Assembly: GCF_017348835.2 (NCBI RefSeq)
Contig: NZ_CP071375.1
Strand: one strand, 5' to 3'
DNA: 64,000 nt
DNA from: Escherichia coli
GTDB lineage: Bacteria; Pseudomonadota; Gammaproteobacteria; Enterobacterales; Enterobacteriaceae
Below are positions 1,163-62,926 of this stretch, piece after piece. Position 1 is the stretch's first letter; each line of letters opens with the position of its first letter. The notes beneath the pieces are model-generated. The model ran no database searches. It was not told where the DNA came from and worked only from the letters and a program-made list of their open reading frames with translations. The translations under genes and the position numbers were made by a program.

Positions 1163-1372
1163 ATGTCTAAGATTAAAGGTAACGTTAAGTGGTTTAATGA
1201 GTCCAAAGGATTCGGTTTCATTACTCCGGAAGACGGCAGCAAAGACGTGTTCGTACACTTCTCTGCAATCCAGACTAATGGTTTTAAAACTCTTGCTGAA
1301 GGTCAGCGCGTAGAGTTCGAAATCACTAACGGTGCCAAAGGCCCTTCTGCTGCAAACGTAATCGCTCTGTAA
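1163..1372 (+). CDS. cspE: Cold-shock-domain protein CspE
   Basis: C-terminal 69 aa of ORF 1073..1372 ([20 protein letters not shown]...) is a CspA-family protein; ATG at 1163. Confidence 0.93.
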
Positions 1373-1392
1373 GATACGTCAGCAAGAATTCA

Positions 1393-1420
1393 AAACCCGC
1401 TTAATCAGCGGGTTTTTTTT
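1393..1420. terminator. Rho-independent terminator between convergent cspE and crcB
   Basis: GC stem aaacccgc/gcgggttt with loop, followed by an 8-T run on the + strand. Confidence 0.8.
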
Positions 1421-1425
1421 GGTCT

Positions 1426-1809
1426 TTAGTGTGCGGTTGAGGCCGAAAACAGCCAGAATGCCAGTGCGGTCATGGCAAAAGACCCCAGAAGGTTGACGAA
1501 AACGTTCAGTAACGCCCAGCCAAAGCGGCCCTCTTGTAACAAAAACACCACTTCTGCCGAAAATGTTGAGAAGGTTGTTAGACCGCCACAAAATCCGGTG
1601 GTGATTAATACTTTCCACACTGGATCAATGTTCGTCATCCTGCTGAACCAGGCGCATCCCATTCCTATGATGAATGCCCCAATCAGGTTTGCTGCCAGTG
1701 TCCCCAACGGAATCGCCTGATGCAGCGGGTTAAATCGCATACTTAACAGCCATCTCGCCACGCTTCCCGTACCACCGCCAATAAAAACTGCTAAAAGAAG
1801 TTGTAACAC
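1426..1809 (-). CDS. crcB: Fluoride ion channel CrcB/FluC
   Basis: 127-aa hydrophobic protein with the CrcB family signature (GGxTTFSTFS). Confidence 0.9.
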
Positions 1810-1895
1810 TGCAAAATCCTGCTATTTGATTTGTATGAGTGATAAGTGTAACGCCGAATAATCGTCGTTGGCGAATTTTACGACTCTGACAGGAG

Positions 1896-2690
1896 GTGGC
1901 AATGCTGGTTGCTGCAGGACAGTTTGCTGTTACATCTGTGTGGGAAAAGAACGCTGAGATTTGTGCCTCGTTGATGGCGCAGGCGGCGGAAAACGACGTA
2001 TCGCTGTTTGTCCTGCCGGAAGCATTGCTGGCGCGCGATGATCATGATGCGGATCTATCGGTTAAATCAGCACAGCTGCTGGAAGGCGAATTCCTCGGGC
2101 GTTTACGGCGAGAAAGTAAACGTAACATGATGACGACAATTCTGACGATTCATGTTCCTTCAACGCCGGGGCGCGCATGGAATATGCTGGTGGCGCTACA
2201 GGCAGGAAACATTGTCGCCCGTTATGCCAAACTGCATCTCTATGATGCATTTGCCATTCAGGAATCACGCCATGTTGATGCTGGTAATGAAATAGCTCCG
2301 TTACTGGAGGTGGAAGGGATGAAGGTCGGTCTGATGACCTGTTATGACTTACGCTTTCCAGAGCTGGCGCTGGCACAGGCATTACAGGGAGCTGAAATCC
2401 TGGTGCTTCCTGCCGCCTGGGTTCGCGGGCCGCTCAAAGAGCATCACTGGTCAACGTTGCTTGCCGCTCGTGCGCTGGATACCACCTGTTATATGGTGGC
2501 GGCGGGGGAGTGCGGGAACAAAAATATCGGGCAAAGCCGGATTATAGATCCCTTTGGCGTCACCATTGCGGCAGCGTCAGAAATGCCTGCACTCATTATG
2601 GCGGAAGTGACGCCCGAACGTGTGCGTCAGGTGCGCGCGCAACTGCCCGTCTTAAACAACCGTCGCTTTGCGCCGCCGCAATTATTATGA
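1896..2690 (+). CDS. ybeM: Carbon-nitrogen hydrolase (nitrilase superfamily) YbeM, intact reading frame
   Basis: 264-aa ORF with strong RBS (aggagg) upstream of ATG 1896; nitrilase-family features (E...K...C triad region, [10 protein letters not shown]). Confidence 0.8.
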
Positions 2691-40187: not shown

Positions 40188-41852
40188 TTACTTATACGCC
40201 GACTGGTGAACACCAACCGCGCGACCAGACGGATCGTCCATTTTCTTGAACGCTTCATCCCATTCGATCGCTTTAGCGGAAGAACACGCGACGGAAGGAC
40301 CGCCCGGCACGCACTCAGCGGCACTCGGAAGCGGGAATAGTTCTTCAAAGATCTCCCGGTACAGATACGCTTCTTTTGAGGTCGGTGTGTTGTACGGGAA
40401 GCGGAAGCGGGCAGTTTCCAGCTGTTGATCAGAAACCTGCTGCGCCGCCACTTCTTTCAGGGTGTCGATCCAACTGTAACCGACGCCATCGGAGAACTGC
40501 TCTTTCTGCCGCCAGGCCACGCTTGCGGGCAGGTATGACTCAAAACATTCACGCAGGATGTGTTTTTCCATCTTGCCGTTACCGCACATTTTATCCTGCG
40601 GGTTAATGCGCATCGCCACGTCGAGGAATTTCTTGTCGAGGAACGGAACGCGTGCTTCCACGCCCCAGGCTGACATCGCTTTGTTGGCACGGGCGCAGTC
40701 ATACATATGCAGGGCCAGCAGTTTACGCACCGTCTCTTCATGCAGTTCTTTGGCATTCGGTGCTTTGTGGAAGTAAAGATAACCGCCAAACACTTCATCA
40801 GAACCTTCACCGGACAGCACCATTTTAATGCCCATCGCTTTGATCTTACGCGACATTAAATACATCGGTGTTGAAGCGCGAATAGTGGTCACATCATAGG
40901 TTTCGATGTGGTAAATCACGTCGCGGATGGCGTCCAGACCTTCCTGTACAGTGAAGTGAATTTCATGATGCACAGTGCCCAGATGGTTTGCCACTTCCTG
41001 GGCTGCTTTCAGATCCGGTGAACCCGGCAGACCTACAGCAAAGGAGTGTAACTGCGGCCACCAGGCTTCAGAGCGTTCCTGATCTTCCACGCGACGGGCT
41101 GCGTATTTCTTGGTGATAGCGGAAATAATTGAGGAATCCAGACCACCAGAAAGCAGCACACCGTAAGGCACATCAGACATCAGATGGCTTTTAACGGAAT
41201 CTTCCAGAGCCTGACGCAGCTCGTTTTTGTCGGTGACATTATCTTTCACCGCATCGTAGTCGAACCAGTCGCGATGATAATAAGAACGGATTTCGCCGTC
41301 CTGACTCCACAAATAGCTCCCCGCCGGGAACTCTTTAATCGTGCGGCATACCGGCACGAGGGCTTTCATTTCTGAGGCCACATACAGCTGACCATGTTCG
41401 TCATAGCCCATATACAGTGGGATGATCCCCAGATGGTCGCGACCAATCAGGTAGGCATCTTTTTCGCTGTCGTACAGGGCAAAGGCAAACATGCCCTGCA
41501 AGTCGTCGAGAAATTCCGGCCCTTTTTCCTGATACAGCGCGAGGATCACTTCACAGTCAGACCCTGTCTGGAACTGATAACGATCGCCGTATTCAGCGCG
41601 CAATGCCTGGTGATTGTAGATTTCACCGTTTACCGCCAGTACGTGGGTTTTTTGTTGGTTGTAGAGAGGTTGCGCCCCCGCGTTAACGTCAACAATTGAC
41701 AGACGTTCGTGGGCGAGAATGGCGTTATCACTGGCATAAATACCGGACCAGTCCGGGCCACGATGACGCATCAGGCGTGACAGCTCGAGTGCTTTCTTAC
41801 GCAGCTCAACTGCGTCTGTTTTGATATCGAATACGCCAAAAATTGAACACAT
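40188..41852 (-). CDS. asnB: Asparagine synthetase B (glutamine-hydrolysing)
   Basis: Start at the internal ATG 41852 (MCSIFGV..., Cys2 nucleophile, 554 aa); the ORF-track extension to 41933 is not used. Confidence 0.95.
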   Translation of the reverse strand: MCSIFGVFDIKTDAVELRKKALELSRLMRHRGPDWSGIYASDNAILAHERLSIVDVNAGAQPLYNQQKTHVLAVNGEIYNHQALRAEYGDRYQFQTGSDCEVILALYQEKGPEFLDDLQGMFAFALYDSEKDAYLIGRDHLGIIPLYMGYDEHGQLYVASEMKALVPVCRTIKEFPAGSYLWSQDGEIRSYYHRDWFDYDAVKDNVTDKNELRQALEDSVKSHLMSDVPYGVLLSGGLDSSIISAITKKYAARRVEDQERSEAWWPQLHSFAVGLPGSPDLKAAQEVANHLGTVHHEIHFTVQEGLDAIRDVIYHIETYDVTTIRASTPMYLMSRKIKAMGIKMVLSGEGSDEVFGGYLYFHKAPNAKELHEETVRKLLALHMYDCARANKAMSAWGVEARVPFLDKKFLDVAMRINPQDKMCGNGKMEKHILRECFESYLPASVAWRQKEQFSDGVGYSWIDTLKEVAAQQVSDQQLETARFRFPYNTPTSKEAYLYREIFEELFPLPSAAECVPGGPSVACSSAKAIEWDEAFKKMDDPSGRAVGVHQSAYK

Positions 41853-46286: not shown

Positions 46287-46618
46287 TATTCACCTCAATA
46301 AGTAAAATGTAAGCCGTTGGCGGATTAGGCATCTTTAAGCGTAACCTGGATTTGCGCAGACAGGCGTCAATCCGACCTGATTTTTTGAATGATAAAATAA
46401 GTTTTCTGGTTTAGCCAGTAAAAGGGAGTGATGATAACGATATTTGGTGACAAAACTCACAAAAGACACGCATTTAATTTGCGATACGAATTAAATTTTC
46501 ACACACTCTGTAGCAGATGATCTAACAATCTGATTACAGAACATCGGCAGTAAAATTTGCAGCAAAATAAAAATACGGCTTTAAACGAGCCAAATAGGGT
46601 TCTCGTAGGGGGAATAAG
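46287..46618. promoter_or_regulatory. Divergent nagB / nagE promoter-operator region
   Basis: 332-bp AT-rich spacer between divergent nagBACD and nagE; NagC/CRP control inferred from architecture, individual sites not mapped here. Confidence 0.5.
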
Positions 46619-48767: not shown

Positions 48768-50432
48768 ATGAGTGAGGCAGAAGCCCGCCCGACTAACTTT
48801 ATCCGTCAGATCATCGATGAAGATCTGGCCAGTGGTAAGCACACCACAGTACACACCCGTTTCCCGCCGGAGCCGAATGGCTATCTGCATATTGGCCATG
48901 CGAAATCTATCTGCCTGAACTTCGGGATCGCCCAGGACTATAAAGGCCAGTGCAACCTGCGTTTCGACGACACTAACCCGGTAAAAGAAGATATCGAGTA
49001 TGTTGAGTCGATCAAAAACGACGTAGAGTGGTTAGGTTTTCACTGGTCTGGTAACGTCCGTTACTCCTCCGATTATTTTGATCAGCTTCACGCATATGCG
49101 ATCGAACTGATCAATAAAGGCCTGGCGTACGTTGATGAACTGACGCCGGAACAGATCCGCGAATACCGCGGCACCCTGACACAGCCGGGTAAAAACAGCC
49201 CGTACCGCGACCGCAGCGTTGAAGAGAACCTGGCGCTGTTCGAGAAAATGCGTACCGGCGGTTTTGAAGAAGGTAAAGCCTGCCTGCGTGCGAAAATCGA
49301 CATGGCGTCGCCATTTATCGTAATGCGCGATCCGGTGCTGTACCGCATTAAATTTGCTGAACACCACCAGACTGGCAACAAGTGGTGCATCTACCCGATG
49401 TACGACTTCACCCATTGCATCAGCGATGCGCTGGAAGGTATTACGCACTCTCTGTGTACGCTTGAGTTCCAGGACAACCGTCGCCTGTACGACTGGGTAC
49501 TGGACAACATCACCATTCCTGTTCACCCGCGCCAATACGAATTCTCGCGCCTGAATCTGGAATACACTGTGATGTCCAAGCGTAAGCTGAACCTGCTGGT
49601 GACCGACAAGCACGTTGAAGGCTGGGATGACCCGCGTATGCCGACCATTTCCGGTCTGCGTCGTCGTGGTTACACTGCGGCTTCTATTCGTGAGTTCTGC
49701 AAACGCATCGGCGTGACCAAGCAGGACAACACCATTGAGATGGCGTCGCTGGAATCCTGCATCCGTGAAGATCTCAACGAAAATGCGCCGCGCGCAATGG
49801 CGGTTATCGATCCGGTGAAACTGGTTATCGAAAACTATCAGGGCGAAGGCGAAATGGTCACCATGCCGAACCATCCGAACAAACCGGAAATGGGGAGCCG
49901 TCAGGTGCCGTTTAGCGGTGAGATTTGGATCGATCGCGCCGATTTCCGCGAAGAAGCTAACAAGCAGTACAAACGTCTGGTGCTGGGTAAAGAAGTGCGT
50001 CTGCGTAATGCTTACGTCATTAAGGCTGAACGCGTGGAGAAAGATGCCGAAGGTAATATCACCACCATCTTCTGTACTTATGACGCCGACACCTTAAGCA
50101 AGGATCCGGCAGATGGTCGTAAAGTGAAAGGCGTTATTCACTGGGTAAGCGCGGCACATGCGCTGCCGGTTGAAATCCGCCTGTACGATCGTCTGTTCAG
50201 TGTGCCGAATCCAGGCGCTGCGGATGATTTCCTGTCGGTGATTAACCAGGATTCTCTGGTCATTAAACAGGGCTTTGCTGAACCGTCTCTGAAAGATGCG
50301 GTGGCAGGTAAAGCATTCCAGTTTGAGCGTGAAGGTTACTTCTGCCTCGATAGCCGCCATTCTACGGCGGAAAAACCGGTATTTAACCGCACCGTTGGGC
50401 TGCGTGATACCTGGGCGAAAGTAGGCGAGTAA
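48768..50432 (+). CDS. glnS: Glutaminyl-tRNA synthetase
   Basis: 554 aa; class I HIGH (HIGH at [12 protein letters not shown]) and KMSKS-type (VMSKR) motifs. Confidence 0.96.
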
Positions 50433-50448
50433 TTTTAAGTTTCGCTAT

Positions 50449-50611
50449 GCCGGATGGGGCGTTTACGTCGCATCCGGCAAGGAACAGACAAACAGTTTCA
50501 AACGCTAAATTGCCTGATGCGCTACGCTTATCAGGCCTACATGATCTCTGCAATATATTGAGTTTGCGTGCTTTTGTAGGCCGGATAAGGCGTTCACGCC
50601 GCATCCGGCAA
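50449..50611. repeat. BIME: three REP palindromic units downstream of glnS
   Basis: Units at about 50449-50480, 50512-50541 and 50577-50611 in alternating orientation. Confidence 0.7.
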
Positions 50612-50629
50612 GAAATATGCAAACAATCC

Positions 50630-50656
50630 AAAACGCCGCGTTCAGCGGCGTTTTTT
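50630..50656 (+). terminator. Rho-independent terminator after glnS
   Basis: aacgccgc-gttca-gcggcgtt followed by a T-run. Confidence 0.75.
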
Positions 50657-51010
50657 CTGCTTTTCTTCGCGAATTAATTCCGCTTCGCAATTTATCCATA
50701 AAATAAATTTAAAATCACGAAACATAATTAAATAAAATGTAACCGCTTTCATCTTGCTGGAATTTCACGCTTTTATTCTTCTGCAAGCCTTTCAACGGCA
50801 AACTTAAGCCTTGTAACAAAAATCATCAAAATATGTGCGGTTGCTCATGTTCTTACATTCTGGTTACAGAAAGAGATTGATAATTCGCGTCGCGAAAAAT
50901 AGTCTGTTCCTGTAGTCAGCGAGACTTTTCTCAACGCTACTTTTTTAATTTTTATTTTTTTCGCTGTTCACCTTTGGTGCAGCAATTTATACGTCAAAGA
51001 GGATTAACCC

Positions 51011-52417
51011 ATGCGTACGTTTAGTGGCAAACGTAGTACGCTGGCGCTGGCTATCGCCGGTGTTACAGCAATGTCGGGCTTTATGGCAATGCCGGAGGCT
51101 CGCGCCGAAGGATTCATCGACGATTCAACCTTAACCGGCGGTATCTATTACTGGCAGCGTGAACGCGACCGTAAAGATGTTACCGACGGCGACAAATACA
51201 AAACCAACCTTTCTCACTCCACCTGGAATGCCAACCTCGATTTTCAGTCTGGTTATGCTGCTGATATTTTCGGCCTTGATATTGCCGCGTTTACGGCGAT
51301 TGAAATGGCGGAAAACGGCGACAGCTCTCACCCGAACGAAATCGCGTTTTCAAAAAGTAATAAAGCCTATGACGAAGACTGGTCCGGCGACAAAAGCGGT
51401 ATAAGCCTGTATAAAGCAGCGGCCAAATTTAAATACGGTCCGGTTTGGGCGAGGGCAGGTTATATTCAGCCAACCGGTCAGACGCTGTTAGCGCCGCACT
51501 GGAGCTTTATGCCAGGTACTTATCAGGGGGCGGAAGCCGGAGCGAATTTTGATTACGGCGATGCCGGTGCGTTGAGTTTCTCCTACATGTGGACCAATGA
51601 ATACAAAGCGCCGTGGCATCTGGAAATGGATGAGTTTTATCAGAACGATAAAACCACCAAAGTTGATTATCTGCACTCCCTTGGGGCGAAATACGACTTC
51701 AAAAATAACTTCGTACTGGAAGCGGCATTTGGTCAGGCGGAAGGGTATATCGATCAATATTTTGCCAAAGCCAGCTACAAATTTGATATCGCCGGTAGCC
51801 CGTTAACCACCAGCTACCAGTTCTACGGTACCCGCGATAAAGTTGACGATCGCAGCGTCAACGACCTTTATGACGGCACCGCCTGGCTGCAAGCGTTGAC
51901 CTTTGGTTACCGGGCGGCTGACGTAGTGGATTTGCGCCTCGAAGGCACCTGGGTTAAGGCTGACGGTCAGCAGGGATACTTCCTGCAACGTATGACTCCA
52001 ACCTACGCTTCCTCGAACGGTCGCCTGGATATCTGGTGGGACAACCGTTCCGACTTTAACGCTAACGGCGAAAAAGCGGTTTTCTTCGGTGCGATGTATG
52101 ACCTGAAAAACTGGAATCTTCCAGGCTTCGCCATCGGCGCTTCCTACGTTTACGCATGGGATGCTAAACCTGCGACCTGGCAGAGCAATCCGGATGCGTA
52201 CTACGACAAAAACCGGACTATTGAAGAGTCTGCCTACAGCCTGGATGCGGTCTATACCATTCAGGACGGTCGCGCCAAAGGCACGATGTTCAAACTGCAC
52301 TTCACCGAATACGACAACCACTCCGACATCCCAAGCTGGGGCGGTGGTTACGGCAACATCTTCCAGGATGAGCGTGACGTGAAATTTATGGTAATCGCAC
52401 CATTCACCATCTTCTGA
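51011..52417 (+). CDS. chiP: Chitoporin (OprD-family outer-membrane porin)
   Basis: 468 aa; signal peptide, C-terminal aromatic residue (...FTIF). Confidence 0.93.
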
Positions 52418-62157: not shown

Positions 62158-62309
62158 TTTGTTCATCTCTTTATTTCAGGTAATAGCAGGTCCTCAATTT
62201 CTCAAAGGAGAAATCGATCACGCCGGAAAAAAAGCAAAGCTCCACCGCTGATAAATAAATCAGTAGTTTGCTTTTTGCAGATGCAATAACCCAGACCAGC
62301 CCGGTAACT

Positions 62310-62697: not shown

Positions 62698-62893
62698 TTA
62701 CCTTTACCTCTTGCTGTGTCAGTTGAAGGTAGAGTTATTCTATCCATGAAATGGCTATAATCTGTGAAGAAGATCAACAAAAAACGATCATACCCCAGAT
62801 AATAAATCATTAATTATGAATAGCGCCATATTAGACGCTGTTTTGTTATTTAAATGTTGTAATTTTGTGTTTTATATTTGCGTTAAGAAATTA

Positions 62894-62926
62894 AACCTGC
62901 CAAATAATAATATTTGGTGCAGGTTT
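62894..62926 (-). terminator. Possible terminator hairpin downstream of kdpE
   Basis: aaacctgc...gcaggttt imperfect stem in an AT-rich region. Confidence 0.35.

Follow-up and report, generated by a model that had tools for sequence, protein, structure and literature searches.

The glnS-chiP intergenic region

The window analysed here is a 64-kb segment of an E. coli chromosome that carries nagE, glnS, chiP, chiQ, fur and fldA, and both the list of open reading frames (ORFs) and the RefSeq annotation place the region upstream of chiP in a glnS-chiP-chiQ-fur context. The glnS gene stops at 50432. A terminator scan located its intrinsic terminator on the plus strand at 50630-50660, where a 10-bp G+C-rich hairpin (50630-50654) is followed by a T-run that extends to about 50660. 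The chiP coding sequence, which appears in the ORF list and in the RefSeq annotation under the match described below, occupies 51011-52417 on the plus strand and encodes a 468-aa chitoporin. The interval under study, 50657-51010, is the 354 bp that separate the glnS terminator from the chiP ATG.

A preliminary description of this DNA had pointed to about 350 bp with long A/T runs between the glnS terminator and the start of chiP, and these observations hold: A/T-only runs of 18 nt (50698-50715), 15 nt (50724-50738) and 21 nt (50941-50961) lie within the 354 bp. The GC content of the interval is 35.0%, compared with 50.3% for the whole window; only 1.7% of 354-nt windows in the 64 kb are equally AT-rich, a level that about five further places in the window also reach. 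Such AT-richness is ordinary for intergenic DNA, and composition alone is unremarkable. What goes beyond chance in the interval is a set of conserved blocks, not its base composition.

A stretch of 701 bases around the interval was matched over at least 80% of its length in 5,260 complete E. coli genomes, with glnS and "chitoporin ChiP" as the annotated features under the match, and the glnS-chiP intergenic sequence is 99% identical to that of K-12 MG1655. For wider comparison we used 80 chiP loci from Enterobacteriaceae genomes and built a conservation footprint from 79 distinct upstream sequences. In this footprint the upstream DNA resolves into discrete conserved blocks within otherwise variable AT-rich sequence; the NagC, CRP-like, promoter and untranslated region (UTR) blocks are conserved across the 80 loci, with the GalR operator as the exception, and conservation is poor at about half of the columns from 50680 to 50810. 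The GTTTTT end of the glnS terminator is aligned in most related loci.

The glnS and chiP genes are adjacent wherever glnS could be located, separated by 385-565 nt in all but one locus. The corresponding gap here, 578 bp, is longer than the 385-565 bp of most other genera because REP/BIME-type palindromic repeats occupy 50447-50620, between the glnS stop codon and its terminator. These repeats give sub-threshold Rfam matches to naRNA4 and ES036 and account for a median of about 39 matching places per E. coli genome. One locus, L040 (Enterobacter/Raoultella-like), has an extra ORF for a predicted membrane protein of 219 aa (1364-2023, minus strand) between glnS and the chiP control region; its spacer measures 1266 bp, and a distal NagC-type operator is still found there at 225 bp.

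Predicted transcription start and core promoter of chiP

The annotation of MG1655 provides a reference point for the 5' end of the chiP transcript. In that genome the noncoding RNA chiZ (b4808) occupies 708236-708333, a stretch of 98 nt that runs right up to the chiP ATG, and begins at the G of GTAGTCAGCG. All 98 bases are retained in this strain, the single difference being one extra T in the T-run. Because MG1655 chiZ is identical here apart from that T, we place the 5' end of the transcript at G50912, which would give a 5' UTR, coextensive with the ChiZ sRNA, of 99 nt (50912-51010, plus strand). Published constructs use the same start: chiP and ChiZ were cloned from GTAGTCAGCG / TAGTCAGCG (Adams et al., 2021), and chiP mRNA was transcribed in vitro from GUAGUCAGCG (Santiago-Frangos et al., 2017). 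Term-seq places the 3' end of ChiZ at MG1655 position 708334, which corresponds to 51011 here (Adams et al., 2021).

The remaining 255 bp (50657-50911) are promoter and operator DNA, not leader. The preliminary description had treated the entire interval as a long leader upstream of chiP; a leader is indeed present at 50912-51010, and the 354-bp extent assigned to it does not stand. Nor would transcription begin right at the start codon, since the MG1655 start implies a leader of moderate length, 99 nt.

A sigma-70 core promoter fits this start. On the plus strand at 50877-50905, a good -35 element, TTGATA (50877-50882), is separated by a 17-bp spacer from a weak -10 element, TAGTCT (50900-50905), which lies seven bases upstream of G50912. 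A consensus promoter scan missed this promoter because its -10 element matches the consensus at just 3 of 6 positions. The block that contains it, ATTGATAATTCGCGTCGCGAAAAATAGTCT (50876-50905), is almost invariant in the 79 sequences.

We also searched 50000-51500 against Rfam with permissive thresholds. No match reached its gathering score and none fell inside the leader; likewise, the interval matched no curated RNA family that would indicate a riboswitch or leader-peptide attenuator. The fold z-score was -0.48.

The NagC operator, a distal candidate and their helical phasing

The proximal NagC operator, GATAATTCGCGTCGCGAAAAATA, occupies 50879-50901, with its centre at 50890 (-22), between the -35 and -10 elements. 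It is letter-for-letter the published "ybfM proximal" NagC site. Scored with a matrix made from nine other published NagC sites, it reaches 22.0 bits and ranks first among 63,978 positions in the window, above the window's own nagE operator. Every locus scored has this operator with at most one changed base, and secondary sources report that NagC represses chiP. The fourth-best match to the matrix in the 64 kb, TTATATTTGCGTTAAGAAATTAA at 62872-62894 (15.0 bits), falls in AT-rich DNA separating two minus-strand ORFs, one of 735 aa that ends at 62166 and one of 225 aa, where it may have arisen by chance.

A candidate distal NagC-type operator, TCTGCTTTTCTTCGCGAATTAAT, lies at 50656-50678 (centre 50667), 223 bp from the proximal one. 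It belongs to a block that ends in GCGAATTAAT, directly follows the glnS terminator and is 70-90% conserved; most genera read (T)TTCGCGAnGCGAATTAAT at this position and score 14-22 bits. In E. coli the right half is conserved and the left half degenerate. The candidate has a 13-nt core, TCTTCGCGAATTA, in common with the published distal NagC site of chbB. In this strain it scores 8.6 bits, which 36% of shuffles of matched composition attain, so that the score lacks significance, and it is therefore conservation and phasing that argue for a function of the distal site in E. coli.

The phasing is apparent when the two operators are compared across species. Their centre-to-centre distances fall at 200-203, 210-214, 221-226, 232-238 and 245 bp, and a Rayleigh test on 19 lineage classes gave R = 0.70 at a period of 10.7 bp, a value reached by 0.28% of uniform nulls subjected to the same period scan. 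A DNA loop held together by a protein would be expected to preserve helical phase, and spacing steps of about 10.7 bp suggest that a NagC repression loop forms between the two operators. The distal NagC-type site was not described in the literature surveyed. A 2014 paper by Plumbridge and colleagues probably covers both that site and the chiP promoter, and part of the looping and phasing interpretation may already be published.

Eight loci of the Enterobacter, Lelliottia and Leclercia group (L039, L045, L047, L049, L050, L054, L069 and L079) are without the GCGAATTAAT block at the usual distance. The best NagC match in these loci is a different T-rich sequence, CTTATTTT..., situated about 191-195 bp upstream and scoring 6-16 bits (mostly 12-16). 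In this clade the distal operator may have been lost, or another site may have taken its place.

GalR and CRP-like sites between the operators

Two further recognisable sites lie between the NagC operators. The first is a GalR operator, TGTAACCGCTTTCAT, at 50738-50752, centred at about -167 from the transcription start. This sequence is the reverse complement of ATGAAAGCGGTTACA, which a ChIP-chip study inferred as the GalR site beneath one of its peaks; that peak, at MG1655 position 708069, maps to 50745, the centre of the motif. In the ChIP-chip paper the chiP site was validated by ChIP-qPCR and is called a known operator. The sequence here matched the GalR operator form, a 16-bp dyad GTGNAANC.GNTTNCAC; binding in vivo is taken from the literature. 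A run of 15 nt, ATGTAACCGCTTTCA (50737-50751), is identical to the mglB operator. Searched with a strict GalR motif pattern, 18 of 72 loci contained the site, and these belong only to Escherichia, Citrobacter and Klebsiella.

The second is a CRP-like site, TGTGCGGTTGCTCATG (TGTGC-N6-TCATG), at 50834-50849. It is near-invariant, ends in TCATA in most genera, and always lies 48.5 bp from the centre of the proximal operator in the 72 loci. Against the consensus TGTGA-N6-TCACA its core pentamers match at 4 of 5 and 3 of 5 positions, a moderate agreement. Its centre, 50841.5, is at -70.5 from the start; class I CRP sites are found at about -61.5, -71.5 and so on. We regard 50834-50849 as a probable CRP site. 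It resembles TGTGAAGAGGGTCATA, which we take to be the CAP site of the chb operon. At the level of the gene, ybfM (that is, chiP) is listed among the genomic-SELEX targets of CRP.

A conserved TGT(A/T)ACA box, with at least 80-90% column identity in the 79 sequences, is found at 50812-50818, about -97. We considered the TGTAACA box (50812-50827) as a second CRP site or a GalR operator and rejected both assignments, because its right half is neither conserved nor consensus-like.

Our most speculative proposal concerns how these sites might work together. Going by their arrangement, a conserved NagC loop of about 220 bp could enclose the GalR and CRP sites, such that loop geometry would integrate GlcNAc, galactose and cAMP signals, with the TGT(A/T)ACA box at about -97 binding a further factor; we hold this only tentatively, and consider it somewhat less probable than its opposite.

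The ChiX pairing site

The preliminary description had named the chiP 5' UTR as the target of the ChiX sRNA and proposed target prediction against ChiX as a check; the identification is right, for a leader of 99 nt rather than 354. The sequence CGTCAAAGAGGA at 50992-51003 is complementary to ChiX nt 45-56 at all 12 of 12 positions, and this pairing site (written CGUCAAAGAGGA on the plus strand) overlaps the Shine-Dalgarno sequence GAGG (50999-51002). The motif occurs once in the window. Because chiX itself lies outside the 64-kb stretch, the ChiX sequence was taken from MG1655. When the single-stranded (seed) part of ChiX was scanned across 42,648 windows on both strands of the 64 kb, the duplex at the chiP site, at -21.0 kcal/mol, was the strongest, against a background with a mean of -7.1 and a standard deviation of 2.5 kcal/mol. 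This seed-region scan replaced an RNAduplex run in which full-length ChiX was paired with the entire intergenic sequence and formed an unrealistic long-range duplex. The second-best duplex, at 40615-40633 on the plus strand (-20.3 kcal/mol), is bulged and antisense to a 581-aa minus-strand ORF, and is probably due to chance.

At least about 90% of the related loci retain the pairing site. Published compensatory mutations establish that ChiX represses chiP by pairing in this region.

Structure of the leader

The minimum free energy (MFE) fold of the leader contains two stem-loops on either side of a single-stranded tract, all on the plus strand. Stem-loop SL1 is 5'-terminal and spans 50912-50940. 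It is followed by a U/A-rich tract of 21 nt, UUUUUUAAUUUUUAUUUUUUU (50941-50961), whose unpaired probability is 0.82 and whose T-run is conserved, and then by stem-loop SL2, GCUGUUCACCUUUGGUGCAGC (50963-50983). The 3' part of the leader, beyond SL2, is mostly open in this fold. The order of 5' hairpin, U-rich tract and second hairpin recurs in most loci, with hairpin sequences that differ between genera and, in many of them, a U-run after SL2.

We projected the MFE structure of this leader onto a sequence-only MAFFT alignment of 66 distinct UTRs. With the projected partners 72% of cells pair, compared with 33-59% when partners are slid by 1 to 3 columns. Changes on both sides are seen at 14 of the 17 pairs of the fold, in 89 cells compared with 38 in shuffles, and none of 500 shuffles reached 89. 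The outer helix of SL1 is 87% paired across the 66 sequences, with all five of its pairs changing on both sides; the outer helix of SL2 is 77.5% paired, with four of five pairs doing so. RNAalifold returned no consensus structure for the 66-sequence alignment, and the support for the leader structure therefore comes from the pair counts.

The single-stranded tract at 50941-50961 is a probable binding site for the rim of Hfq, with binding itself known from the literature: CLIP has mapped Hfq crosslinks to a UA-rich sequence within the chiP 5' UTR, and for class II sRNAs, ChiX among them, the targets bind Hfq at its rim. The same leader is known to accumulate as an RNA of about 90 nt, ChiZ, which sponges ChiX. 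When PNPase is absent, an Hfq-binding fragment that carries the chiP ribosome-binding site accumulates. In the published data the effect of Rho is only intermediate, and the Rho score at the ChiZ 3' end is below the threshold used (Adams et al., 2021).

Natural variants of the leader

Two kinds of departure from the E. coli leader appear in the comparative set. Six loci from Citrobacter and related genera (L013, L020, L021, L022, L024 and L025) have about 120 nt inserted into the chiP 5' UTR, downstream of the second hairpin and upstream of the ChiX site; in L020 it lies at about 2356-2472, and the leader is lengthened to about 220 nt. The inserted sequence is an unannotated dispersed intergenic repeat, of which E. 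coli genomes contain a median of 5 copies, and it resembles ERIC/IRU elements.

In Kosakonia the ChiX site carries three substitutions and reads CGTCCAGAAGGA in L048, L057, L058 and L065 and CGTCTAGAAGGA in L052. Paired with E. coli ChiX, these sites would leave two mismatches. We scanned metagenome contigs with ATTCCTTYTRGACNGGCC for a compensating ChiX variant and obtained more than 120 stretches; among the matches listed none had a ChiX terminator or context, and these matches are due to chance. Should the Kosakonia ChiX seed read UCCUUCUGGACG or UCCUUCUAGACG, this would be a case of natural compensatory covariation; should it be unchanged, weakened ChiX control is predicted in that genus.

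Comparison with chb, nag and other sRNA-releasing leaders

The closest counterpart is the K-12 locus itself. The E. coli K-12 chiP 5' UTR/ChiZ (b4808), with its site for ChiX (also SroB, MicM or RybC), has the same locus, sequence, inferred transcription start, ChiX site and U-rich Hfq tract; the differences from K-12 ChiZ are the strain and one extra T in the U-tract, and nothing of substance. Short stable RNAs that end just downstream of an sRNA pairing site are likewise found by 3'-end mapping as 5'-UTR fragments or sponges of eptB, ompA and IspZ. The chiP fragment differs from these in becoming more abundant upon deletion of its sRNA and in acting on that sRNA in return.

At the DNA level, chiP follows the same regulatory logic as the E. 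coli chbBCARFG operon, where the terminator of the preceding gene is directly followed by a distal NagC operator. The distal NagC site of chb (L203 2330-2352, upstream of MG1655 chbB) comes right after the osmE terminator, as the chiP candidate comes right after the glnS terminator. A TGTGA-N6-TCATA sequence, taken to be the CAP site, is visible in the chb control region. The chb operon also uses the activator ChbR; no AGGTCAA-type repeats were seen upstream of chiP. The chb transcript is reported to interact with ChiX, and the role of the two pairing sites differs: in chb the site is a decoy that destroys ChiX, whereas in chiP it is a repressed target.

A second parallel lies in the same 64 kb. 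The divergent region of nagE-nagBACD (46379-46495), which NagC represses by looping, also contains a pair of 23-bp NagC operators. Their scores with the NagC matrix are high but provide no independent check, because both operators are among the nine training sites of the matrix. The two systems differ in the spacing of their operators, about 94 bp at nag and about 223 bp at chiP, and in that the distal site at chiP is much weaker in E. coli.

Alternative interpretations of the interval

We weighed three other accounts of the interval. If the whole 354 bp were transcribed, a promoter would have to lie just after the glnS terminator and produce an AT-rich 5' UTR of about 300 nt. Long leaders do exist in E. 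coli, and one promoter-like match, TTAAAA-18-TAAAAT, can be found at 50709-50738; it is at chance level, however (1 found and 1.5 expected), and falls where the region is least conserved. The annotated ChiZ RNA and the published constructs start at 50912, Rfam returned neither leader nor riboswitch in the upstream stretch, and what is conserved upstream consists of DNA palindromes with the sequences of published NagC and GalR operators rather than of RNA-like elements. We consider a leader of this length very improbable.

At the opposite extreme, the AT-rich stretch could be a non-functional spacer, or horizontally acquired DNA of the H-NS type, in which only the last few dozen bases matter. 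The low GC content and the poorly conserved columns within 50680-50810 would be in keeping with this. Against it stand the blocks that are near-invariant, an operator spacing that keeps helical phase, the glnS-chiP adjacency with its spacer of 385-565 nt in all but one locus where glnS was located, and the binding of GalR at chiP in vivo known from the literature, and this account, too, has little chance of being right. A separate hidden gene on either strand, for a small protein or an sRNA, is the least probable of all. Minus-strand ORFs of 36 aa (50642-50752) and 34 aa (50715-50819) do exist, as do weak sub-threshold Rfam matches near the terminator; yet the two ORFs span the least conserved columns, the Rfam matches all stay below the gathering score and fall on REP elements or the terminator hairpin, and MG1655 has nothing annotated at that location.

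A model for control of chiP

We conclude with high confidence that the interval is the control region of chiPQ, made up of about 255 bp of untranscribed regulatory DNA and a 99-nt 5' UTR. Identity to annotated and published elements, complementarity to ChiX, conservation and covariation were computed here; repression by NagC, binding by GalR and Hfq, repression by ChiX and the function of ChiZ are taken from the literature. We infer that this strain uses the MG1655 start, that the distal operator functions, that NagC loops the DNA and that CRP activates the promoter.

In the model that we propose, a weak sigma-70 promoter would start chiP transcription at G50912. The repressor NagC occupies the high-affinity operator between the -35 and -10 elements, and probably also binds the weaker distal operator 223 bp upstream, adjoining the glnS terminator. 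By bridging the two, NagC would loop out the AT-rich DNA between them, which carries the GalR operator and the CRP-like site at -70.5. In the UTR, ChiX together with Hfq pairs at the 12-nt target over the Shine-Dalgarno sequence, which prevents translation and favours termination by Rho. The UTR is in addition set free as the sRNA ChiZ, sponging ChiX in turn.

The chiP control region and its ChiX target and ChiZ are already known, a real but ordinary feature: published papers or the MG1655 annotation cover ChiZ as well as the GalR operator and the proximal NagC operator. Our analysis makes modest additions, namely the helical phasing of the operators, the covariation that supports the UTR hairpins, and natural variation at the ChiX site, and together these make the looping model directly testable. 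The importance of the finding beyond correct annotation is small. An AT-rich gap before a gene is not a leader by default; here 72% of it is operator and promoter DNA. Control of chitosugar uptake at this locus is layered in textbook fashion, combining transcriptional repression by NagC with translational silencing by ChiX/Hfq and its Rho-dependent polarity, and with the RNA decoys ChiZ and chb.
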